From Planctomycetota bacterium (lineage in GTDB: Bacteria > Planctomycetota > Planctomycetia > Planctomycetales > Planctomycetaceae), in contig VGZH01000017.1 in NCBI GenBank assembly GCA_016872645.1, forward strand, positions 4,626 to 68,625: a stretch of DNA of 64,000 bases, given 5' to 3'. The position numbers and the translations under genes are program-made. Below the pieces are notes generated by a model, which had not been told where the DNA came from, made no database searches, and worked only from the letters and a program-made list of their open reading frames with translations. Shown piece by piece: positions 1,883 to 63,999 of the stretch; positions within the stretch are counted from its first letter, which is position 1, and every line of letters begins with the position of its first letter.

Positions 1883-4800
1883 CTACGCCAGTGCGGCCAG
1901 CAACGCGGCCGACAACGTAAAAGTCGTGTCGATCTCGTTGGTCGGATCGAAGACTGTGTCGCTCCCTTCACCGGGGTTGATGGTGTCGAAGCTGCCTTGG
2001 CCATTGAGGGAATCGTCTCCTTCGTCTCCGAGCAGTACGTCCCGACCGGCGCCACCGGCCATCGTGTCGTTGCCGTCACCGCCAGTGAGCGTGTCGTTGC
2101 CGGCAGCTCCATTTATGACGTCGTCGCCGTTGCCACCCCCAAGTAGATCGTTGCCATTCAGGCCATCGAGCGTGTCATCGCCGTCGCCGCCGCTGATCGT
2201 ATCGTCGCCGTCGTGACCGACGATCGAGTCATTGCCGTCATCGCCGTCGAGCTTGTCATTGCCGTTCTCGCCGGTGATCGTGTCGTCGCTGCCACCTCCA
2301 CGAACCGTATCGTTTCCGAGATTGCCATTGAGGCTGTCTGCTTCATTGCCGCCGAGGATTGAGTCGTTACCGTCACCGCCATCGACGACATCGGTCCCGT
2401 CACCGGCATCGATCGAGTCGTTCCCTGCCTCGCCGTTAATCGTGTCCGCACCGACATCTCCCGTCACAGAGTCATCCCCCGCGCCGGCATTGACACTGTC
2501 GGCACCGTCTCCGGCGAGGATGCGATCGTTGCCGGTCCCACCCAGGATCGTGTCGTCACCCAGTCCACCGAAGATCAGATCGTTGCCCCCTTGACCATCC
2601 AGCACATCGTCGCCGTCGCCGCCGTTGAGCGAATCAATGCCGGCGCTGCCGGTCAGCGAGTCATCGCCGAGTCCGCCGACTAACGACACGCGGATGAGGC
2701 CAATATTCGCGCCGTTCGAGTTGATCGTGTCGTTGCCGTCACCACCATCAATCGTCAGCAACGTCGCCGTCTGCACTCGATCGAGCGCATTAATGGTGAT
2801 CGTGTCGTCTCCGTCGCCCGCCAAAATGTCCACCACTTGAATGATCGGCGAGACGTTGAGCACCGCCGACCCATCCGTGATTCGCAGTTGCCCATTGGCC
2901 TGCGACACGACAAAGTTGTTCGCCACCGCCGTCCCCTGCACGCGGACACGATCGTAGCCAGATAGACTCGACAACGTGTCGACGCCGTCACCGTTTCCGT
3001 TCCAGACGTAGGTGTCGGAGCCATCGCCACCTTTCACGAGATCGTTGCCACCCTGGCCATCTACGGTGTCGTCGCCAAGCTCACCATCGAGCGTGTCAGC
3101 ACCTGCGCCACCTAATATCGAATCATTGCCGGCTCCTCCGAGCAGCGAGTCGTTCCCGGCCATGCCGTTGAGAAAATCATTGCCGATACTTCCGAGGAGC
3201 GTGTCATTGCCGCTGCCGCCCAACAGGGTGTCCCGTTCCAAATCCGCCGCGCCGCCGCCGGGAATAGTAGGCGGTGGAGGCGGTGGAGGTGGTGGAGGTT
3301 CAACTTGAGGCAGGGTGCCGTAGAACGAGATCTGCCAGGAATCGAACGTGCCCACCGTCCCTGATGCTAAATCGCGAACCTGCAGAGTCCAGGTGCCGAG
3401 CGTGGATTCGTCCCAGTGGCGTGCCGAGGTGAATAACCAATTCCTGTAGTCGTCGTTAGGGTCATTGCGGTCTTCGGCGAGGACCGACTGCGTTCCGTCG
3501 GGAGACGTGAGGATGACTTCCAATTGGCCTCGGACGCTGTGTGTGGTGTTAAACGTGACCTCAACCCATTCGACGCTGATGTCCTCTGTCACGTTCACTG
3601 GAGATGAGACGCCGCTCAGGTTGTTGTCAGGAATTGTTGAATTTACGGCAATTGTAGGCGAAACAACCGTGATTTCGGCATCCACGTTGACATGTGTGAT
3701 CGCCGCATTGACCGCAGCCAAGGCGTCGATCGCTCCGAAGCCGTATTTGTGGTTCACCAAATGTCCGGCACCGTTGAGAACCCAATCCGAATCGGTGGGG
3801 TGATTCTGTTCGGCGGTGTTCACCAAGATGTGTTTGATATCTCGATAGGACAGATTCGGATTGGCTTGAAGCATGAGCGCGATTACGCCGGAGACCAGCG
3901 GGGTAGAGGAAGAGGTGCCGTCGAAGTCATCGCGATAATCTCCTGGATCAGCACCGGCATTACCGATCAGATCGGTTGTCGTGATCCCGTCCGGACTTGT
4001 TCCTGGAACGCCTCGCGAGTAAGCGGTGACCAAAATCGGCGCGCCCGGCTCGCTGTAGGATGCCTGAACGCCATCGTCATCCACGGCAGCAACAGCGATC
4101 ACGAACCGCGAATTGGCGTAACCGTCATAGTTAACGTTGTCATTGTTACCGAGACCGTTGCCGGCCGCCCAAGTGAAGACACTCCCCAAGCCTCCGCGTC
4201 CGTTCGCCGTACCATTTTGAAGTGCGGCCAATGCCAACGGGCCGGGAAAGTCTAAACTCCGGCCATCGTCAGGTGGTCCCCAGCTGTTGTTGTAAATGTC
4301 GATGTCTTGATTCATGAAGCTGAGCGCGTTGCCTTCAAGCAAATCGGTTTGCCCAAAGGCCACGAGCCGCAATCCAGCCAATGACGCACTTGGCGCCGAG
4401 CCTGTGCCCCCCAGTGAGTTGAATCCTCTCGCGGCCGCAACTCCAGCGACAGCCGTGCCGTGACTGTCACCACCTACCGGCGTCGGATCAGAGTCATTGC
4501 CGATGAAATCAAAACTCAAGGCTGAAACATAATTCGGATTCAGATCTTCGTGTGCGTGCTGCAGACCATCATCCACGATGCCGATAACGACGCCCGTGCC
4601 GAGGAAGTTGTCCCACGCTTGTACCACGTTCGCGTCCGCCCCGACGGTGCCTCCTGTCTGGCCAGTGTTTCGAAGATGCCACTGATCAGGGAACAGCGGA
4701 TCGTTGGGAATTGCCCGCGTCGAGACCTCACTGCCGACCAGCGGATAAAAAAACGCGACGTCCTTGTGTTTCTCCAACTCCGCTCGGAGATGCGTCGCCT

Positions 4801-23695: not shown

Positions 23696-24757
23696 ATGTC
23701 CGCACCGTTTTTCGCTGAGTTGATTGTCGAGCCGTTCCTCAGCGGTAAGCGGATCGACACATTTTTAGGGCGGCATTTCCGCAACTATTCGAGCTACCGG
23801 CTACAACGAATTGTGCGGGCCGGCGAAGTTCGCATCAACGACGTCGCGGCTGACAACGAGTCGCGAGTCTATCGCGATCAGCGAGTTTCCGTCCGCCTGA
23901 TCGAGCCGCCGGACCAACTGCTGTTACCCACTCCCGGCCCGCTGCACATCCTCTACGAGGATCCCTGGCTGCTGATTGTCGTCAAGCCATCGGGACAAAT
24001 TGCTCACCCCGCCGGAGCCTATTTAACTAACACACTGGCCAACGTCGTCCAGCATCACCTCGATCAGCAAACTTGTTGGCGAGGATTGTTGAGACCGGGC
24101 ATCGTGCATCGGCTCGACCGCATGACGAGCGGTGTCATGGTCATTTCCAAGGAACATCTCTCGCACGCACTGCTGACCGAGGCGTTCATGCGTCGCAAGG
24201 TTCAGAAGACTTACCTCGCGCTGGTGGAGGGGGTCATTGCGGTCGACTCGGGAGTGCTCGACAAGCCGATCGGCGAGTCGGTTGATCCGGCGAGCTGTTT
24301 GATGACTACACATCCCGAGGCCCGCGATTCACGCCCGGCACTGACCCACTTTCAAGTCATTGAACGGTTCTCCGCCCATACTCTGGTCGAGGCGAAACCA
24401 GTCACCGGTCGACAACACCAAATTCGAGTGCATCTTGCCGACATCGGCCACCCGGTCGTCGATGACGAGTTCTACGGCCCGTTTAGCTGGATCAAGAAAG
24501 ACCCCGCCGGGAATCCGGTCCCTTGCCCTGCCGAAAGTCGTAGGCCGAAAACCGATGGACGTGATCCTTTTTTTCCGAACGACGATGACGACGTGAACGG
24601 ACTTCCGAACGACCAACAGCTCGTTGGCCGCCACGCTCTGCACGCGCATCGCTTGGAGTTTCGCCACCCAATCACTTGGGAGCCGCTGTCATTTGAAGCC
24701 CCATTGCCGGAAGACATCGCGCACGCTGCCGCTCGACTGCGCGCCCCATCAAAGTAG
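23696..24757 (+). CDS. RluA-family 23S rRNA pseudouridine synthase (RluD-like, with an S4 domain)
   Basis: HRLDRMTSGVMVISK catalytic motif. The N-terminal S4-like segment reads RIDTFLGRHF...SYRLQRIVRAGEVRIND. GRQHQIRVHLA is also present. Confidence 0.9.
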   Translation: MSAPFFAELIVEPFLSGKRIDTFLGRHFRNYSSYRLQRIVRAGEVRINDVAADNESRVYRDQRVSVRLIEPPDQLLLPTPGPLHILYEDPWLLIVVKPSGQIAHPAGAYLTNTLANVVQHHLDQQTCWRGLLRPGIVHRLDRMTSGVMVISKEHLSHALLTEAFMRRKVQKTYLALVEGVIAVDSGVLDKPIGESVDPASCLMTTHPEARDSRPALTHFQVIERFSAHTLVEAKPVTGRQHQIRVHLADIGHPVVDDEFYGPFSWIKKDPAGNPVPCPAESRRPKTDGRDPFFPNDDDDVNGLPNDQQLVGRHALHAHRLEFRHPITWEPLSFEAPLPEDIAHAAARLRAPSK

Positions 24758-24788
24758 CCGAGCCGGCCGCAGCGGAATCGTATGCTTT

Positions 24789-24807
24789 CCGGTCACTGAG
24801 TGACCGG
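24789..24807. repeat. Half copy of palindromic element family 1 (CCGGTCAC-tga-GTGACCGG hairpin)
   Basis: Perfect 8-bp stem with a 3-nt loop, in the 60-nt spacer between convergent genes. The hairpin arm is identical to those of the copies at 26911 and 63003. Confidence 0.55.
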
Positions 24808-24817
24808 TCTACTTTCG

Positions 24818-26110
24818 TCAGGCAAATAATTCCCGCACCGGCTCACCTTCGTCCGTGATCGGAACCGGCCGCGTACCGGAGTAAATTTCCTCGCGCGGAT
24901 TGATGCCGAGAGCGCAGTGAACCGTCGCGTGCAGATCGGGAACGGATACCGGTCGCGAGACGATCTTCATGCCGAGTTCGTCGGTCTCGCCAATCGTAAT
25001 TCCGTTTTTCAAGCCGCCGCCTGCCAGCACGACGCTAAAGCACCTGCCGTGATGCCCACGCCCGCCGCCGCCATCGAATTGCGCGGGGCGGCCGAATTCG
25101 GTTGCGACGACGATCAACGTCTTGTCGAGCAACTTCTTGTTTTCGAGGTCCCGCACAAGCGCGGACAGCGCTTGATCGAGTTCCGCGATCAGTTTGTGCT
25201 GATTCAAGATGCCTTCGTTATGCACGTCCCAGCCGGTGCCGTTGAGAAAGTTGAGGTTGTGCGAGACCTCGATGAATCGCACGCCCCCTTCGATGAGCCG
25301 TCGCGCCAGCAAGCAGCGCTGGCCGAATTCGCCACCGAAGTCGTGACGCAAGTCCGCCGACTCGCGGTTGAGATCGAACAGCCTCATGAACTCCGGTCCC
25401 GCCAATTTCTGAGCTGCGGCAATCGCCGCATCGTATTCCGCCGCGATTCCCTCGCTGCCGTTTCGCGATCGCAGATCGTCGCGCACCGCATTGAGCAATG
25501 TCTCACGCCGAGCCTGTCGCTCATCCGTGATCCCGACCGACCGCTTCAGTGCCGGCGGCCCGGACTTTGTGTCGGTCAGATGTACGTAGCCGTACTTCGG
25601 GCCGAGAAATCCCGGCCCCCGCGTCACGTTCGGATACCCCATCAAAACGTACGCTGGCACACCGTCGGTGATCGTCCCTCGCTGCTGAGCGACGATCGAC
25701 CCGATCGACGGATACTGTTCCGTGCCGCTCGTCGGCCGCCCAGTGTGCATCCGATTGGTCGCCGCCGCGTGCTCGTCGATCACGTCGTGGTTGACCGTCC
25801 GCAGAATGTTAAACCGATCCAGAATTGTCGCGCAACGAGGCAAGTGCTCGCACACGCGAGTTCCTGAAATCGCCGTCTCGATCGAGTCGTAGTACGACCC
25901 CGGCTTCTTCTCTTTGGGATCGCCTTTGACTTTCGGATCCCAAGTATCGAGATGCCCCTGCCCGCCGCCGAGCCAGACGAACACGCAATGCTCGGCTTTG
26001 CCGCGAGGCAGTTGTGACATCTTCGATTCGTCCGCTTGCAGCACTGGTACTGTCAGCGCGGCGGTCGTAATCGCGGCCGATTGAGACAGAAAAGTTCGTC
26101 GAGTCGTCAT
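24818..26110 (-). CDS. DUF1501 domain protein (sulfatase-like fold, Tat signal)
   Basis: MTTRRTFLSQSAAITTAAL Tat-like leader. WLGGGQGHLDTWDPK motif. Sits downstream of a DUF1549/DUF1553 gene. Confidence 0.9.
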   Translation of the reverse strand: MTTRRTFLSQSAAITTAALTVPVLQADESKMSQLPRGKAEHCVFVWLGGGQGHLDTWDPKVKGDPKEKKPGSYYDSIETAISGTRVCEHLPRCATILDRFNILRTVNHDVIDEHAAATNRMHTGRPTSGTEQYPSIGSIVAQQRGTITDGVPAYVLMGYPNVTRGPGFLGPKYGYVHLTDTKSGPPALKRSVGITDERQARRETLLNAVRDDLRSRNGSEGIAAEYDAAIAAAQKLAGPEFMRLFDLNRESADLRHDFGGEFGQRCLLARRLIEGGVRFIEVSHNLNFLNGTGWDVHNEGILNQHKLIAELDQALSALVRDLENKKLLDKTLIVVATEFGRPAQFDGGGGRGHHGRCFSVVLAGGGLKNGITIGETDELGMKIVSRPVSVPDLHATVHCALGINPREEIYSGTRPVPITDEGEPVRELFA

Positions 26111-26177: not shown

Positions 26178-29100
26178 TCAGGGAACAATCAAAAACTCCG
26201 GGCTGTTGATCAGGGACCAAATCATGTCCTCGGCGCGCTCACGCCAATCGGCGTTGAGTCGCGACGTCGTGGGGTCGCCAAAGGCGATTTCTTCGGCGAG
26301 TTGTTGTTTACGGAAGTTGGCTTCGGGTTTGAGGTGGTTGGACCAAGAGACGCCGGTTTGCCTCGGTGGCTGCGAGCGGCGGATCGGATGCTCGCCGGGG
26401 ACGATGCGGGACGCGAATCCGTCACGCAACAAGTCGCCGAAAATCTTTTGTTCGGCAGCAGTCGCGGGGCGTGTGAGGAGGCGTTGCGTGACTGAGTCGA
26501 TGAAGTCTTCGGGCGTCTGCGCGGCCAGCGCGAGTTCGGTGAAAGCACTGTCGTCGGAAAGTTGTGAGACTCGCTTGGCAACGACGCCGTTGGCGATCAT
26601 CGCCGGTTGCAGAACGGTCGTCTCGTTCGAGCGAATTGTGATCGGATCGGGACGAGAAGCTCGCCATCCGAACGATTCGAGGAGATCGACGATCGTCTGC
26701 GCGGCAGGGAGAGATAGGCTGGGCCGGTCCCGTTCGTTGGACATCGACGTAAACTGCCACGCGCGGCGCGCGTGGCCGAGGCTGATGGAGACGTCTTGCC
26801 GACGAGCGCCATCGACGTCGATGTTGATCTCTTCCACGTTGAACGGCTTGTCGGCCGCGACGAATAGCGAGTCGATCAGTTGCTCGGCAGTCAGACGGCG
26901 GGAATGTGGACCGGTCACTCGGTGACCGGAATTCGAGTCACGGAGTAACTGGACTTCTTTGGCCTGATACGCCCGCGAATTCAGGATCACGCGCATCAGT
27001 TGCTTCACGTCGTAGCCGTGAGAGACAAACTCCCGTTCGAGTGATTCCAGTAATTCCGGGTTGGACGGCTTGACCTTTTCCCAATCATCGACCGGATCGA
27101 CGATCCCTTTGCCGAAGAGCCGCGCCCAGATTCGGTTCACGATGACCTGGGCGAAGCGGCGATTCGTTGGCGACGTGATGAACGCGGCGAGTCGCTCGCG
27201 CGAGTCCTTAGGGTTACTCAACAGTTCGTCGGGGACAGCAGCCACGAGTTCCCCGAACGGCCAGACAGGCGTGACTGACTCGCCCGGCTTAAGCGTGACT
27301 TTGACGAGCGGTTCGCGACCGCGCACGGCGAAGGCGTCGAGGTTCAGGCTGCTGGTCTTCGGAACTTTCTCCGGTTCGCGTTTCAGCAGAGCGGCGAGCG
27401 AGAACAAATCGCGTTGCAGGAAGTCGTGATACGGCGCGTCGTGACAGCGGGCACACTTCATTTCGAGTCCGAGAAATGCTTGCCCGACAATGTGGGCCTT
27501 CGCGGCCATCGGCACATCGTTCTGACTGGCAACCGAGAACCCACCCGGGCCGCCGTAGCGGATGCTTCCTTCCATCAGGATTAGTTCGGTCGCGAATTGG
27601 TCGAACGGTTTATTGTCGAGAAAGCTCTCGTGAATCCACCAGCGGAACGGGCCGGTGTTGTTAAGCGTTGGATTCAGGATGTTCGGGTTCTCGGCGAGCA
27701 CGTCTTGCCAATAGCTGACCCAGTGATCGGCATAGCCCGGCTCCGCCAACAGCTTGTCGATGATCGCTGCTCTTCGCGTGGCTTCCGGCTGAGCGAAGAA
27801 GAACTTGATGTGCTCCGCAGTCGGAATTGTTCCGACCGTGTCGAGCGCGACGCGACGCAGGAAAGACCAATCATCGGCCGACTGTAGACCGGTCATGCCG
27901 TGACTCGAATTCGAGTCACGGAGTGATTCGGCGACTTTGCTCGCATACTCATGCCGCTTATTCCAGAATGCCGTCCACTCGCGACTGGCCTCGCGACGTC
28001 GTTGCTGATTCAACGTCGCCAGTTCGCCGCGAAGACGAGCGTCGTAATCCATCCAAGCGTCATCGGTAAGCGGAAACGGCTTCGTTGGGTGCAACACGAC
28101 AAACGTATCGCGATCGGGTTCGGCCAGTGCGACGAGCGTTTCGCCGAGTTCCGGTCGCATACTCTTGCCCCCCAGGAAGACCTCCCACGTTAGGCGATGT
28201 CGACCGCCGTCGGACTTGAAAGTGGCGATCGCGTCTTGATCGCCCGGACGAAGTGCTCGATGACCGGGAGCAGGGACCCGATCAAGCCCCCAGACATCTT
28301 CGTGGCCATCACCGCGAAACTTCGGGAACGGATTCGCGACGACAAGCCTGCCATCGACAAACAAACGGGACGCACTGCGGCTGCGCGTCAGCAAACGACA
28401 GTCGCCGGCGGGGAGTTTCAGATCACCGGTTACACGCACGACAAACGGGTTCGAGCGATCGGCTCGCACGCCCAGAGGCGAATACTTGTGAGCAATCTCG
28501 ACGAGCGCGAAACCGGACTCGACGTAGCGATCAGTCGGTTCGGGCGCGATGAAATCCCAATTCATCTTGTCCGGAATGCCCTCCAGGACTTCGACGAGAA
28601 CGCCGTCTTTCGGCGGTTCGATCGTCGTGACGTACGGCTTGGGTTGTAGCACTCGCCACCGCGCGGCGATTCGTTCGGCAGGCAACGCGGAGCGATAGAT
28701 CGCGACCTCGTCAATCGAGCCGTGAAAACTGTTGCCCGCGTTGATCGCGCTGGCCGAGCCGATCCAGACCTCATCATCATCGACGACGGGCGCTTCAGTC
28801 GTCGCACCGCCATAGTCCCATTCACCTTCGAGCGGCTGGCCGTCGATGTAACCACGAATCGACTCCGGCTTGCCGAACCTGTAGCTGGTCGCAACGTGAT
28901 GCCAACCGGATTCGATGTCAAAGCCAGCCTTCGATGTCCAACGATGGAAGTCGTTTTGATTCCCCTTCCGATTGTCCTCGCTGCGGAACAGAAACGTGAC
29001 GCAGGCGTCCCCTTTGTTGCCGGCGAGTCGCAATGCGTAGTTCTGATTGTCCTCGGCAACGCCGGCGTTTTTCGTGCGGCCTTTGCCGACGACGTACATC

Positions 29101-29552
29101 TGCTGACCGTCCCCGAGTTTCTTGACCAACACCCAGGCTTCGAGCGTGATCGAATCACCGAGTCCAAAATCGAGCGGACTCTTCTCGCCCGGATCGGCGA
29201 TCTTGATGACCGCGGGAGACTCAAACGCTGCCGCCTGATTGTCCGCTTCAAAGTTCAAGAATTTCGGCGGCCTCGGGCCGAGTTGATCAGCTCGGACGAA
29301 TCCCTTTGACGTCGCGCTGGCGTCGTTCAAGTTGTCCTCGTCAAACAAACGCGATGCGACGCCCGGCTTGATGATGCCGTGGCCGAGCGACTTTGGGTGA
29401 ACCTCGAACAGATGATCCTCCAATCGCCAATAGGCGACGGGCTGATCCTGCAAGATCGTTTCGGCATACGGCAGAGAGTCCGATGGCTGGGCCAAACTAA
29501 AACGGCTTCCGAAAATCGAAAGCGAGATCATCACCAGCAAGGCCGAACGCAT
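26178..29552 (-). CDS. DUF1549/DUF1553 (PSCyt2/PSD1-type) protein with an N-terminal LamG-like domain
   Basis: Signal peptide MRSALLVMISLSIFGSRFSLAQ. LamG-like segment LEAWVL...WHHVATSY...GSIDEVAIYRSAL. The DUF1549 opening FLRRVALDTVGTIPT and the CARCHDAPYHDF motif are present. I prefer the start at 29552 to 29675. Confidence 0.88.
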   Translation of the reverse strand: MRSALLVMISLSIFGSRFSLAQPSDSLPYAETILQDQPVAYWRLEDHLFEVHPKSLGHGIIKPGVASRLFDEDNLNDASATSKGFVRADQLGPRPPKFLNFEADNQAAAFESPAVIKIADPGEKSPLDFGLGDSITLEAWVLVKKLGDGQQMYVVGKGRTKNAGVAEDNQNYALRLAGNKGDACVTFLFRSEDNRKGNQNDFHRWTSKAGFDIESGWHHVATSYRFGKPESIRGYIDGQPLEGEWDYGGATTEAPVVDDDEVWIGSASAINAGNSFHGSIDEVAIYRSALPAERIAARWRVLQPKPYVTTIEPPKDGVLVEVLEGIPDKMNWDFIAPEPTDRYVESGFALVEIAHKYSPLGVRADRSNPFVVRVTGDLKLPAGDCRLLTRSRSASRLFVDGRLVVANPFPKFRGDGHEDVWGLDRVPAPGHRALRPGDQDAIATFKSDGGRHRLTWEVFLGGKSMRPELGETLVALAEPDRDTFVVLHPTKPFPLTDDAWMDYDARLRGELATLNQQRRREASREWTAFWNKRHEYASKVAESLRDSNSSHGMTGLQSADDWSFLRRVALDTVGTIPTAEHIKFFFAQPEATRRAAIIDKLLAEPGYADHWVSYWQDVLAENPNILNPTLNNTGPFRWWIHESFLDNKPFDQFATELILMEGSIRYGGPGGFSVASQNDVPMAAKAHIVGQAFLGLEMKCARCHDAPYHDFLQRDLFSLAALLKREPEKVPKTSSLNLDAFAVRGREPLVKVTLKPGESVTPVWPFGELVAAVPDELLSNPKDSRERLAAFITSPTNRRFAQVIVNRIWARLFGKGIVDPVDDWEKVKPSNPELLESLEREFVSHGYDVKQLMRVILNSRAYQAKEVQLLRDSNSGHRVTGPHSRRLTAEQLIDSLFVAADKPFNVEEINIDVDGARRQDVSISLGHARRAWQFTSMSNERDRPSLSLPAAQTIVDLLESFGWRASRPDPITIRSNETTVLQPAMIANGVVAKRVSQLSDDSAFTELALAAQTPEDFIDSVTQRLLTRPATAAEQKIFGDLLRDGFASRIVPGEHPIRRSQPPRQTGVSWSNHLKPEANFRKQQLAEEIAFGDPTTSRLNADWRERAEDMIWSLINSPEFLIVP
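26911..26952. repeat. Palindromic element family 1, full double-hairpin copy inside a CDS
   Basis: ccggtcac-tcg-gtgaccgg aatt cgagtcac-gga-gtaactgg. Translated in-frame on the minus strand as LLRDSNSGHRVTG. Confidence 0.65.
27889..27930. repeat. Palindromic element family 1, full double-hairpin copy inside a CDS
   Basis: ccggtcat-gcc-gtgactcg aatt cgagtcac-gga-gtgattcg. It contains a perfect 24-nt palindrome ccgtgactcgaattcgagtcacgg. Translated in-frame as ESLRDSNSSHGMTG. Confidence 0.65.
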
Positions 29553-61244: not shown

Positions 61245-62675
61245 GTGAGTCACGACGTCTACGAAAACCCGCTCATCAAGCGATACGCCTCGAAGCCGAT
61301 GGCCGAGTTGTGGTCAGAACAACGCAAGCACTCGACCTGGCGTCGGCTCTGGGTCGCGCTGGCCGAGGCGGAACGAGAACTCGGCATCGAGATTTCAGAA
61401 GCTCAGATTTCAGAACTCCGAGCCGCGACCGACGACATCGACTTCGCGCTGGCCGCCAAGTACGAGAAGGAGCTGCGGCACGATGTGATGGCTCACGTCC
61501 ACGCTTACGGTGATCGCTGCCCGTCGGCGCGCGGGATCATCCATTTGGGGGCCACAAGCTGCTATGTCACGGACAACACCGACCTGATTCTGATGCGTGA
61601 AGCGTTGCAGTTGGTGCAGGCGAAGCTTGTGGCGGTCATCGATGAGCTGGCGAAGTTTGCGGCGAAGAATCGCGAGCTGCCGTGTCTCGGATTCACGCAT
61701 CTGCAACCGGCTCAGCCGACAACAGTCGGTAAGCGGGCGACGTTGTGGTGCTATGACCTCGTGCTGGATCTCGCTGAGATTGAGCATCGGCTCGCCGTGT
61801 TGAAATGCCGAGGGGTCAAAGGGACGACCGGCACGCAGGCGTCGTTTGTGGCGTTGTTTAATGGTGATCACGCGAAGATCGAAGAACTCGACCGCCGAGT
61901 CTCCGCCAAGATGGGATTCGATGCAGCCTATGCGGTGACTGGGCAGACGTACTCGCGCAAAGTGGATGCGCAAGTGCTCGACGTGCTCAGCGGCATTGGC
62001 CAGAGCGCTCACAAAGCTGGCACTGACATTCGCATCTTGCAAAGCCGCAAGGAAATTGAAGAGCCGTTCGAGAAGCAGCAGATCGGCTCGTCGGCGATGG
62101 CCTACAAGCGGAATCCGATGCGATCCGAGCGGATGTGCTCGCTCTCCCGGTTTGCGATGAGCTTGCCCGCGAATCTTTCACAGACGGTAGCGACGCAGTG
62201 GCTGGAACGGACACTCGACGACAGTGCGAATCGGCGGCTCGTGCTGCCACAAGCGTTCCTGGCGATCGACGCGGTCTTGATTTTGTACCGCAACGTCGTG
62301 GATGGGATGGTCGTGTACCCGAAGGTCATCGCGAAGAATCTCGGGGAAGAGTTGCCGTTCATGGCGACCGAAGAAATTCTGATGGCTGGGGTCCAAGCTG
62401 GCGGCGATCGGCAAGAGCTTCACGAGCAAATCCGCGTCCACAGTCAGGCAGCCGCACAGCAAGTCAAAGAACATGGCCGAGCGAACGACTTGCTCGACCG
62501 TTTGAAGAGGGATCCGGCGTTTGCGTCGGTCGATCTGAGCAAGGCGCTCGACGCCCGCCGCTTCGTCGGCCGAGCACCCGAGCAAGTCGATCGGTTTATC
62601 GCCAATATCATCGAGCCGATTCGTCAGCGGTATCACAATCTCAGCGGTCAACCGTCAGAACAATTACGAGTTTGA
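61245..62675 (+). CDS. purB: Adenylosuccinate lyase
   Basis: GTG start. The opening [21 protein letters not shown], the [11 protein letters not shown] signature and the [13 protein letters not shown] motif are all present. Confidence 0.94.
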
Positions 62676-62693: not shown

Positions 62694-62978
62694 ATGAATC
62701 GTTTTTGGTCATTCGTCGGTTTGTTTGTGGCGTTCGTGTTTGCGGTGACGTTCTTTAATCGGTCAGCGCAGTCCGATACCCCTGCGTCCACGATACGTTG
62801 GGAATATCGCACAGAGACGATCGAGCCGACGTTGCTCGCACAGCGGCTCAATGAATGGGGCGGCGATCGGTGGGAAGCCTTCGCCGTCGAACGGGGCGAT
62901 ACGGTGCTCGAACAAGACGGCGTGACCAAGCTGAAAGTCGCGAACTTTCAGGTCACCGCGCGACGCCCGTTAAAGTAG
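62694..62978 (+). CDS. Small secreted/anchored hypothetical protein (DUF4177-like)
   Basis: N-terminal hydrophobic helix. The segment WEYRTETIE...LNEWGGDRWEAFAVE resembles the DUF4177 pattern. Confidence 0.55.
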   Translation: MNRFWSFVGLFVAFVFAVTFFNRSAQSDTPASTIRWEYRTETIEPTLLAQRLNEWGGDRWEAFAVERGDTVLEQDGVTKLKVANFQVTARRPLK

Positions 62979-62979
62979 T

Positions 62980-63021
62980 CGAGTCACTCCGTGACTCAAA
63001 TTCCGGTCACGAAGTGGCCGG
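62980..63021. repeat. Palindromic element family 1, full double-hairpin intergenic copy
   Basis: cgagtcac-tcc-gtgactc aaatt ccggtcac-gaa-gtggccgg. It fills the 49-nt spacer between two convergent stop codons. Confidence 0.65.
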
Positions 63022-63027
63022 TCTCCT

Positions 63028-63999
63028 TTACGGCTTCCAGGCGGTGAAGAACTTTTGCAGCCGGACCATCTCTCCGGGCAGATAAGCGGCGGCGGTGATG
63101 TGGCCGGCGTCGAGCCACACTAACTCCGGCTTCGTGCCGATCGAGTCCCACAGGGCCATCGTAGCCGCGCGTGGGATGATCTCGTCGGTCTTCGCGTTGA
63201 CCATCAGCACGTCGCGGTCTTTGAGCAACCGGCCATGAGTCGCCGGATCGACCGGCTCGAGCAGTTTCAGGAATGATTCGCGCGACTCACCCATCTTGAG
63301 CCACTCGGAGCGAAACGCATCGGCATCGCGATGTTGCATGTCCCAAAGGTTCTCGCCGAGCTTTCCGCCACCCAGGTAGATCGCGACTTTGCGGAATCGC
63401 GGTTCACCCGCCGCCGACAACGCAGACATGATCCCTCCCAAACTGATGCCGGTGACACCCAGCCGTAGCTTGTCGATTTCAGGTCGAGCGGCCAGCCACG
63501 CTCCCGCGCGGCGAACATCGAGGACCGCCTGCGTCATCCCTTCGGCCACCTCGCGCGGGTCGCGAGAGATCATGCGACGCGGAGAGTCCTTGCTGCGACG
63601 CTCGCCGTAGTACGGCATCTTGATGAACAGCGCCGCGACCTTCGCGCGAGCCAGCGAACTTGCGACCGTCTGCGACAGCGGAAACTCGCCACCCAAAATG
63701 TGCAACACGACAACACCGGGAAATGGTCCTGCGCCGGCCGGCTGAAAATACTCGCCGTACACCGTGTTGTTCTCCGGGACGACGGTTTCGACGGGCGACG
63801 GAAACGTTACAGAGATCGTTCGAAGCGCCTCACTTTCCCGCAGGAGTTTCGCCTCGGCCTCAAAGCGATGCGACTTCAATCGAAACTGCTCCGGTACGGT
63901 CTCTTCGTTCTTCGCTGGAACAAACTCGATTTCGGCAACCTCCGAGACCTCTGAGAATGGAGACTGGTCGTCCGCGGCAACTTTTGCCAAGCAGTTCAG
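63028..63999 (-). CDS. Alpha/beta hydrolase (dienelactone hydrolase / S9-like), probably 5'-partial
   Basis: GVTGISLGG nucleophile elbow. The late motifs are NAKTDEIIP (Asp) and LDAGHI (His). The frame is still open at the window edge, and the only in-window start candidate is TTG 63990. Confidence 0.78.
   Translation of the reverse strand: MNCLAKVAADDQSPFSEVSEVAEIEFVPAKNEETVPEQFRLKSHRFEAEAKLLRESEALRTISVTFPSPVETVVPENNTVYGEYFQPAGAGPFPGVVVLHILGGEFPLSQTVASSLARAKVAALFIKMPYYGERRSKDSPRRMISRDPREVAEGMTQAVLDVRRAGAWLAARPEIDKLRLGVTGISLGGIMSALSAAGEPRFRKVAIYLGGGKLGENLWDMQHRDADAFRSEWLKMGESRESFLKLLEPVDPATHGRLLKDRDVLMVNAKTDEIIPRAATMALWDSIGTKPELVWLDAGHITAAAYLPGEMVRLQKFFTAWKP

Follow-up and report, generated by a model that had tools for sequence, protein, structure and literature searches.

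Two in-frame palindromic elements in a planctomycete PSCyt2/PSD1 gene and the dispersed family of GTAG-tagged repeats to which they probably belong

The 64,000-nt stretch of DNA analysed here (the window; Planctomycetota bacterium, assembly GCA_016872645.1, contig VGZH01000017.1, positions 4,626 to 68,625) contains a gene with PSCyt2/DUF1549 and PSD1/DUF1553 domains (26178..29552, minus strand; 1124 residues from its ATG) whose reading frame runs unbroken across two palindromic elements. Both elements are very probably old copies, by now partly decayed, of a 58-bp dispersed repeat, here termed family A, which belongs to the GTAG-tagged class of repetitive extragenic palindromes (REPs) and is tolerated in-frame. 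Its hosts are a group of uncultured, mostly freshwater planctomycetes, through whose genomes the repeat has spread. The puzzling peptide shared by the two elements is thereby explained without any protein function. An initial annotation had located elements of this kind at 26911-26952, 27889-27930, 62980-63021 and 24789-24807, and the sequences are found there as claimed.

Structure of the repeat

The conserved unit of family A is a near-perfect palindrome of about 58 bp, formed by two inverted, GTAG-tagged stem-loops, i.e., a head-to-head (HH) REP dimer with the layout AAA-GTAGA-(CGAGTCAC-TCC-GTGACTCG)-AATT-(CGAGTCAC-GGA-GTGACTCG)-TCTAC-TTT. The consensus of 71 aligned copies, nnnAAAGTAGACGAGTCACTCCGTGACTCGAATTCGGGTCACGGAGTGACCCGTCTACTTTG, equals its own reverse complement. 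This alignment extends the unit beyond the 42 nt initially proposed, by the outer stem GTAGA/TCTAC and the AAA/TTT flanks. Each half consists of GTAG (sometimes GTGG, as in loci L015, L063, L092 and L110), one or two bases, an 8-bp stem and a 3-nt loop. The halves are inverted around a 4-bp AATT spacer with the tags outermost, an HH arrangement that all full copies share, spacer included. The alignment columns of the tags (7-10 for GTAG, 55-58 for CTAC) are at least 90% conserved.

The three variable stem positions fall into three types that covary (GAG/CTC, CGG/CCG and GGG/CCC), and the dimers comprise 23 GAG/GAG homodimers, the rest being GAG/CGG or CGG/GGG heterodimers. Under a model of two hairpins plus the outer stem, 93% of the cells are paired overall and 98-99% in both hairpins (70 distinct copies). 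The covariation score of this model is 0.21 versus 0.095 in shuffles, with 19-31 double-sided changes per variable pair within the hairpins. The outer stem covaries too (GTAGAC/GTCTAC, GTGGTC/GACCAC, GTAGCC/GGCTAC). A single long hairpin was rejected as the conserved structure, as it is 88% paired, no better than shuffles, and leaves pairs 13-52 and 29-36 unpaired in 44-45 of the 70 copies. We interpret the success of the two-hairpin model, the failure of the long hairpin and the covariation of the outer stem as an indication that the conserved unit is the individual hairpin. In terms of energy, a long hairpin is favoured by the homodimer consensus, at -33 kcal/mol (z = -12).

The two copies in the host gene

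The host protein comprises Laminin_G_3 (residues 130-296), PSCyt2 (544-725) and PSD1 (785-1040) domains. Its site 2 is occupied in-frame by copy E1 (26903..26960), a decayed family-A dimer of the CGG/GAG heterodimer type with 7/58 mismatches to the nearest consensus. A covariance model built from the repeat alignment matches it at 26900-26963 (60.2 bits, E = 1e-17). E1 encodes AKEVQLLRDSNSGHRVTGP (residues 864-882), within the PSD1 domain. Site 1 is likewise occupied in-frame by copy E2 (27881..27938), a decayed dimer with 9/58 mismatches (model match 27878-27941, 58.9 bits, E = 3e-17), which encodes SKVAESLRDSNSSHGMTGLQ (residues 538-557) directly ahead of DDWSFLRR at the start of PSCyt2. The peptides given in the initial annotation, ESLRDSNSSHGMTG for E2 (residues 542-555) and LLRDSNSGHRVTG for E1 (869-881), are indeed read in the frame of the 1124-residue gene; its plus-strand readings DRSCRDSNSSHGVIR and ESLRDSNSGHEVAG are correct, and the insert regions contain YASKVAESLRDSNSSHGMTGLQSADDW and YQAKEVQLLRDSNSGHRVTGPHSRR. 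The double hairpins that it described in both coding copies could not be recovered in perfect form. The second hairpin of E1 (CGAGTCAC-GGA-GTAACTGG) and the first hairpin of E2 (CCGGTCAT-GCC-GTGACTCG) are imperfect. The predicted folding energies of the window coding copies have decayed to only -11 and -15 kcal/mol, which suggests that the structure is not maintained in them.

An AlphaFold2 model of the host protein, built from a 38-sequence alignment (mean predicted local distance difference test, pLDDT, 77.6), has pLDDT below 50 at residues 546-554 (site 1) and 867-879 (site 2), the positions of the inserts. Both form coil flanked by confident helices (524-543 and 561-572 at site 1, 849-863 and 889-900 at site 2) and are therefore predicted to be flexible loops. 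The earlier view that the elements occupy linkers holds in so far as both lie in predicted low-confidence loops, but not with regard to their relation to the domains. Site 2 lies within the PSD1 domain, in a variable loop some 84 residues from its start, and is not interdomain, and the insert at site 1 replaces the N-terminal edge of PSCyt2, the segment reading IDRFIxxKL in distant orthologues.

Family A has one open phase per strand, which reads KVDESLRDSNSSHGVTRLL and adds about 19 residues, while the remaining two phases are closed by TAG (in GTAG) or TGA (in GTGAC). The proposal that an insertion stays open in either orientation is thus valid for one phase per strand and fails for the other two. 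Because two of three phases are closed on both strands, a genic copy survives in the open phase only. Its survival would also require a loop that tolerates the additional residues (KVDESLRDSNSSHGVTRLL or variants), and the host gene would offer two such loops, one before the DDWxFLRR of PSCyt2 and the variable loop in PSD1.

Dispersal of family A and its positions in genes

In the window, the 20-nt core GTGACTCGAATTCGAGTCAC occurs three times with up to 3 mismatches, versus 0.00 expected, and the hairpin motif GGTCACNNNGTGAC 13 times with up to 1 mismatch, versus 1.5 expected. The covariance model finds exactly four window copies (E = 3e-20 to 9e-10), the next best match having E = 0.4. A scan for GTGACYSRAATTYSRGTCAC (the exact 20-nt core) in one genome per species, which makes the resulting sample of copies pattern-ascertained, matched at least 117 loci. 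About 75 of those listed derive from 15 planctomycete metagenome-assembled genomes (MAGs), and among the matches listed the MAGs CAMDEA, CAMDDX and JAYVQJ have more than 15 loci each. The wider search proposed in the initial annotation therefore did recover further copies, and with these and the four in the window, family A shows the many dispersed copies typical of REPs. Its near-identical copies are found in both orientations, intergenic and inside unrelated genes, across the 15 MAGs. The pattern had no matches in viral contigs and four in metagenome contigs. Matches outside the planctomycetes (Bacteroidota, Firmicutes, Actinomycetota) were excluded as unrelated simple hairpins or terminators, mostly of a Bacteroidota type.

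We classified 79 family copies by open reading frames (ORFs) called from stop to stop, so that some of these are shadow ORFs. In 31 cases the copy lies in the open phase inside a long ORF (100 or more codons upstream, 60 or more downstream). In 32 further cases a long ORF terminates within the element, among them 19 at the TAG of GTAG and 8 at a TAA or TAG of the AAA flank. Another 14 copies are plainly intergenic, and two are read through by a long ORF that stops within 60 codons. As the repeat itself supplies the stop of the upstream gene in the 19 and, at the flank, the 8 copies, it often sets the annotated C-terminus. Repeat-derived peptides and repeat-supplied stop codons are accordingly to be regarded as a source of annotation noise in planctomycete MAGs. 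A stop supplied by GTAG also ends the release factor 1 gene prfA in locus L008 (2220-2222).

The genes with in-frame family-A copies are diverse. They encode enolase (L005, between Enolase_N and Enolase_C), DNA polymerase III alpha (DnaE; L015, inside the PHP domain) and a B12-binding radical-SAM protein (L007 and L074). Two Ser/Thr kinases carry the repeat between the catalytic loop and DFG (L038) or in the activation segment (L093). In all of these, Pfam identifies domains to either side of the insert. Further in-frame copies were seen in L033 (a GH57 glycosidase), L063 (a GcvP-like protein), and L020 and L113 (FliF-like). Three PSCyt/PSD1 paralogues likewise contain family A, at the loop homologous to site 2 (L078, L114) or at the PSCyt2 start, like site 1 (L069). 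In-frame insertion thus extends across many unrelated genes, as in Rickettsia palindromic elements (RPEs).

Recurrence at homologous loops of PSD1 paralogues (L078 and L114 compared with the window gene) and the open frame in several orthologues are what one would expect if the peptide were a selected protein module, a linker or motif shared by descent or exon-like shuffling, with the palindromy incidental. We regard this explanation as highly improbable. The DNA is near-identical at all codon positions, also in intergenic copies, in both orientations and inside genes for enolase, DnaE, kinases and the GH57 glycosidase; the stem bases covary for DNA or RNA pairing and not for residues; both inserts are predicted to be disordered loops; and at the two sites some orthologues have peptides from unrelated palindromes while others have none. 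The copies in unrelated genes and intergenic regions, together with orthologues of 57% and 72% identity that have no such peptides, support the earlier proposition that the shared peptide belongs to a dispersed DNA repeat and not to the protein family.

It could also be argued that the elements are artefacts of metagenome assembly at repeats, since all related loci come from MAGs or metagenome contigs. The probability of this is close to nil, as an identical insert-bearing protein was recovered 14 times (P0001) and independent assemblies from ENA, JGI, NCBI and Logan yielded orthologues that share its insert. Moreover, the ORFs around the elements are long and contiguous and have domains on either side, and copies are also present in two MAG contigs from long reads, 1.2 and 2.2 Mb in length (L063, L110; MAG CAWEKV).

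In two loci (L066, 6189-8000; L108, 4328-6229), an in-frame family-A copy lies between the C-terminal domain of GFO_IDH_MocA and a second, N-terminal GFO_IDH_MocA domain and links the two in a single open frame. These open frames may represent fusions of two tandem oxidoreductase genes via the repeat. Loci L021 and L099, both from MAG CAMDDX, have ORFs of 1136 and 1248 codons with family A about 240 codons before the end, like site 2. The former carries the flanking anchors of the window gene, while the latter did not match them, and the two may be paralogues or reflect a strain mixture in the bin.

Turnover of palindrome families at the insertion sites

Orthologues of the host protein comprise 21 sequences of 72-85% identity and many of 50-57%. 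Sites 1 and 2 are hypervariable in the former and native in the distant ones, in which site 1 shows the canonical start of PSCyt2, xIDRFIxxKLxxxxxxPxPLxDDWxFLRR, and site 2 reads SDxxxxxLFAGPxxRR. Distant orthologues with both peptides conserved, which the initial annotation had named as evidence against a mobile repeat, were looked for, and native sequence was found at both sites instead. P0022 (72% identity) and P0024 (57%) are native at both sites, and P0020 has no element at site 2. Compared with P0022 and P0024, the close group has lost the canonical PSCyt2 N-terminal segment IDRFIxxKL...PxPL (residues ~536-560, window 27878-27990). Since only repeat-derived sequence is left ahead of DDWSFLRR, this segment is dispensable in the orthologue group of 72-85% identity.

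The close orthologues carry palindrome families A to E at the two sites in mosaic combinations (A/A, A/B, C/A, C/B, D/A, D/B, E/B, C/-, D/-, -/A and -/C for site 1/site 2), and the orthologue tree is shallow and star-like. Family B (GTAGGTTGGGACTCTGTCCCGACC ... inverted; from contig DNA) is GTAG-tagged, while families C (GGCGAGCGGGGCGGCGTCAGCCCCCCGGT ... inverted) and D (CACTGAGCGGCACGGCGCTAGCCGCCGGTG ... inverted) have no GT[AG]G tag, and family E is known as a peptide only (VPPSGGT...RLKAELQ). Family B is present at L120 4120-4190, L119 3964-4033 and L099 1111-1198, family C at L120 3109-3188 and in L001, L082, L106, L115, L007 and L109, and family D at L021 5456-5530 and in L095 and L109. 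Their recurrence at unrelated loci implies that B, C and D are dispersed repeats as well. Altogether, at least five further dispersed palindrome families coexist in these MAGs, also in-frame in genes. At site 2, families A and B share the left junction, immediately after TATCAGGCC (Y-Q-A); at site 1, P0003 has a family-A-like dimer with a 36-nt spacer. In close lineages, family A and at least four other palindrome families have each settled in the two loops of the host gene, which were thus occupied more than once.

The sequence of P0005 (L119) at site 1, which has only the right arm GCCGTGCCGCTCAGTG of family D where L021 has the full inverted repeat, might suggest that the palindromes formed locally, by hairpin-templated inverted duplication or template switching from the flanks. 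Such a local origin is very improbable, because families A, B, C and D have the same sequence at unrelated loci and are hence dispersed, and because the state of P0005 is better explained by partial deletion of family D. The retained right arm also led us to reject P0005 as an example of an empty site 1.

A similar turnover is evident in the enolase interdomain linker. Among orthologues that are 80-90% identical, the linker holds family A, a monomer or dimer of family F (the GTGG-tagged GTGG-GGCAGG...CCTGCC-CCAC, found in L124 and L125), C-like peptides, or none of these. The enolases P0132 and P0130 carry a GTGG-tagged family other than A at this position, and Gimesia enolases keep the native linker. 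In enolases P0121-P0172 (alignment A3, columns 574-598), the C-terminal 10-30 residues also vary in length and sequence (FGSAVYQHRTPKFTRDAARGR versus FRSLNPGVPKRC), which suggests that repeats at the stop codon remodel enolase C-termini too.

It is conceivable, though in our opinion rather doubtful, that these loops are persistent landing pads, where a resident REP hairpin or its GTAG ends attract insertion or replacement by other REP families. If so, conserved proteins would swap cassettes of 10-35 residues by targeted turnover among lineages that are 10-20% diverged, and REPs would generate loop diversity in planctomycete proteins, namely at the two sites of the PSD1 protein and in the enolase linker. 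The data fit both such targeting, with REPs attracting REPs, and selection on a high flux of insertions, and do not separate the two. The recurrence of families at the same loops provides a natural experiment on insertion-tolerant protein sites and on a possible targeting of REP insertion.

Comparison with known palindromic elements

GTAG REPs are small stem-loops that end in GTAG or, in some cases, GTGG. They frequently form HH dimers whose tags face outwards, either homo- or heterodimers, and the two units can be as little as 1-5 bp apart (Di Nocera, De Gregorio & Rocco 2013, BMC Genomics 14:522, PMC3733652). The HH dimers are equivalent to the REPINs of Bertels & Rainey (2011), as cited in PMC3733652. 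GTAG REPs mostly lie at gene 3' ends, are linked to REP-associated tyrosine transposases (RAYTs) and are known from the Planctomycetes-Verrucomicrobia-Chlamydiae (PVC) superphylum, in Rhodopirellula baltica and Opitutus terrae (PMC3733652). More than half of the intragenic REPs are dimers or grouped repeats that encode 20-30 residues, their numbers being highest in O. terrae and R. conorii, and in-frame dimers of O. terrae occur in real genes including DnaE and uvrA (PMC3733652).

Family A agrees with this class in every structural and distributional respect that could be tested. Its 8-bp stem and 3-nt loop are within the range of the class (unit of 20-40 bp, stem of 5-13 bp, loop of 2-20 nt), and it shares the GTAG/GTGG tag, the inverted homo- and heterodimers and the short spacer. 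Likewise shared are copies at 3' ends between convergent genes, often overlapping stops, in-frame dimers of about 20 residues including one in DnaE, the presence of several families per genome, and hosts from the PVC superphylum. By contrast, the GTCAC-TCC-GTGAC core of family A is absent from the supplementary tables of PMC3733652. The intragenic share of 31/79 in our pattern-ascertained sample exceeds the mostly intergenic distribution reported there. Furthermore, the intragenic REPs of R. baltica are all in small hypothetical ORFs (PMC3733652), whereas the hosts of family A include enolase, DnaE, kinases and PSD1 proteins.

Family A and the RPEs, as far as the latter are described in PMC3733652 and PMC10969869, have in common that a selfish palindrome is inserted in-frame in many unrelated, apparently functional genes and adds a conserved peptide. 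According to Ogata et al., as cited in both sources, surface loops presumably tolerate the RPE inserts. The RPEs described first measure about 150 bp (PMC10969869) and RPE-4 and RPE-6 are CGTC-tagged (PMC3733652), while family A is a GTAG-tagged unit of 58 bp. Length and tag thus indicate that family A is no RPE by sequence class, a distinction drawn from these descriptions. RPEs are also hosted by a reduced intracellular genome, family A by free-living planctomycetes with large genomes. The likeness to Rickettsia noted in the initial annotation is therefore justified, but the phenomenon had already been described close to planctomycetes, with the GTAG REPs of R. baltica and the in-frame dimers of O. 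terrae. The in-frame palindromes described here are a new family within a published class and not a new phenomenon. They go somewhat beyond the published picture in their high in-frame share (with the ascertainment mentioned above), in their core-enzyme hosts and in the turnover of several families at the same loops, including those of paralogues. In-frame REP insertion is hereby extended from Rickettsia and Opitutus to free-living planctomycetes, including enolase, DnaE and kinase activation loops.

Miniature transposable elements with inverted repeats (MITEs) such as Correia/NEMIS, ERIC and RUP are likewise small non-coding palindromes with inverted ends that sometimes form in-frame ORF fusions. 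Family A differs from them in having no target-site duplication and no terminal inverted repeats like those of insertion sequences (IS) apart from the hairpins, and it is much shorter than the typical 70-300 bp of MITEs.

Mobility and arguments against the proposed origin

Following the published work on GTAG REPs, a RAYT-type HUH tyrosine transposase with cleavage at GTAG may produce and move the copies of family A in the form of single-stranded hairpins. Across seven trial boundaries, direct repeats of 2-5 nt are at chance level (2-mers in 4-9/71 copies). This lack of a target-site duplication beyond chance agrees with a mechanism of the IS200/RAYT type and speaks against a classic MITE.

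Several observations weigh against the proposed origin from a mobile REP. Unlike the published GTAG REPs, family A has no associated RAYT or IS200-like transposase in about 0.9 Mb of scattered 8-kb blocks (tblastn with E. coli RayT; scan for the HUH...YxxxNP motif), a sample in which one or few genes per genome are easily missed. A clean empty site with conserved flanks, from which the insertion boundaries and the target could be read, was sought among the orthologues and not found. P0020 is empty at site 2 but its linker differs, and enolase P0146 has another short sequence. Neither the 52 bp from GTAG to CTAC nor the conserved 58 bp is a multiple of three. The covariation in the stems could stem from amplification of three master hairpins rather than from independent compensation. 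All related sequences are from metagenome assemblies, and the insert-bearing host protein is a predicted product of its reading frame.

The only loci with two copies, L109 and L008, were considered as candidates for a REP-flanked transposase and rejected, as L109 has no suitable ORF and L008 contains prfA, prmC and murA.

Extragenic copies and gene 3' ends

The two remaining window copies are extragenic. E3 (62972..63029) is a GAG/CGG heterodimer of family A with 5/58 mismatches (covariance-model match 62969-63032, 67.8 bits, E = 3e-20). It lies just downstream of an alpha/beta-hydrolase gene (63028..63990, minus strand), the TAA stop of which overlaps the TTT flank of E3. The adenylosuccinate-lyase gene (61245..62675, plus strand) ends about 300 nt upstream of it, and a small ORF (62694..62978) is terminated by the TAG of its GTAG.

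The fourth copy (24748..24818; 36.7 bits, E = 9e-10 with the covariance model) is intergenic. The sequence at 24789 had been noted as a half copy, and although it is present as given, it represents the intact right half of a full-length element with a degenerate left hairpin. The right hairpin reads CCGGTCAC-TGA-GTGACCGG. This copy exactly occupies the 60-nt gap between the convergent pseudouridine-synthase and DUF1501 genes. The former gene (23696..24757, plus strand) takes its TAG stop (24755-24757) from the GTAG of the copy, and the TGA stop of the latter (24818..26110, minus strand) lies 2 nt past the other end of the copy. The position of extragenic copies near or overlapping gene 3' ends, in the window as in the 32/79 copies that end an ORF, corresponds to that of other REPs. 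Such copies may act as RNA or DNA hairpins, e.g., as terminators or stabilisers of mRNA, as published work on REPs would suggest.

This raises the question whether the repeat is chiefly a structure that functions as RNA or DNA (as bidirectional terminator, mRNA stabiliser or protein-binding site) and is kept for regulation, with the intragenic copies as by-products or internal regulatory sites. The window copy wedged between convergent stops (24748-24818), the one abutting a stop codon (62969-63032), the 32/79 copies in which a long ORF ends (in 19 cases with the TAG contained in GTAG) and the folding energy of the consensus (-33 kcal/mol, z = -12) are all in agreement with such a role. Roles of REPs in termination and mRNA stability have been discussed (PMC3733652), and the hairpin with its TCTACTTT tail fits a lax terminator pattern, which was passed at 24789 and 63003. 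However, this tail follows the hairpin without a real U-tract, lax terminator sites in the window are no more numerous than in shuffled sequence, and a search of the window against Rfam 15 gave no match at gathering score. The copies inside the essential enolase and DnaE genes cannot be efficient terminators, and the folding energy of the window coding copies has decayed to -11 and -15 kcal/mol, which speaks against maintenance of the structure there. We therefore consider a primarily regulatory nature possible but unlikely. For the extragenic copies it is compatible with their being dispersed REPs, and it does not provide an alternative origin.

Clusters of copies occur as well. In the B12-binding radical-SAM gene of L007 (4403-4548), a family-C palindrome adjoins a truncated family-A copy, a nested or clustered arrangement like that of bacterial interspersed mosaic elements (BIMEs). 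In L109, the 576 nt between the two family-A copies (3118-3694) contain no convincing ORF and translate to tRNA-like strings (GFEPVT); it is possible that this interval represents tRNA genes flanked by REP dimers.

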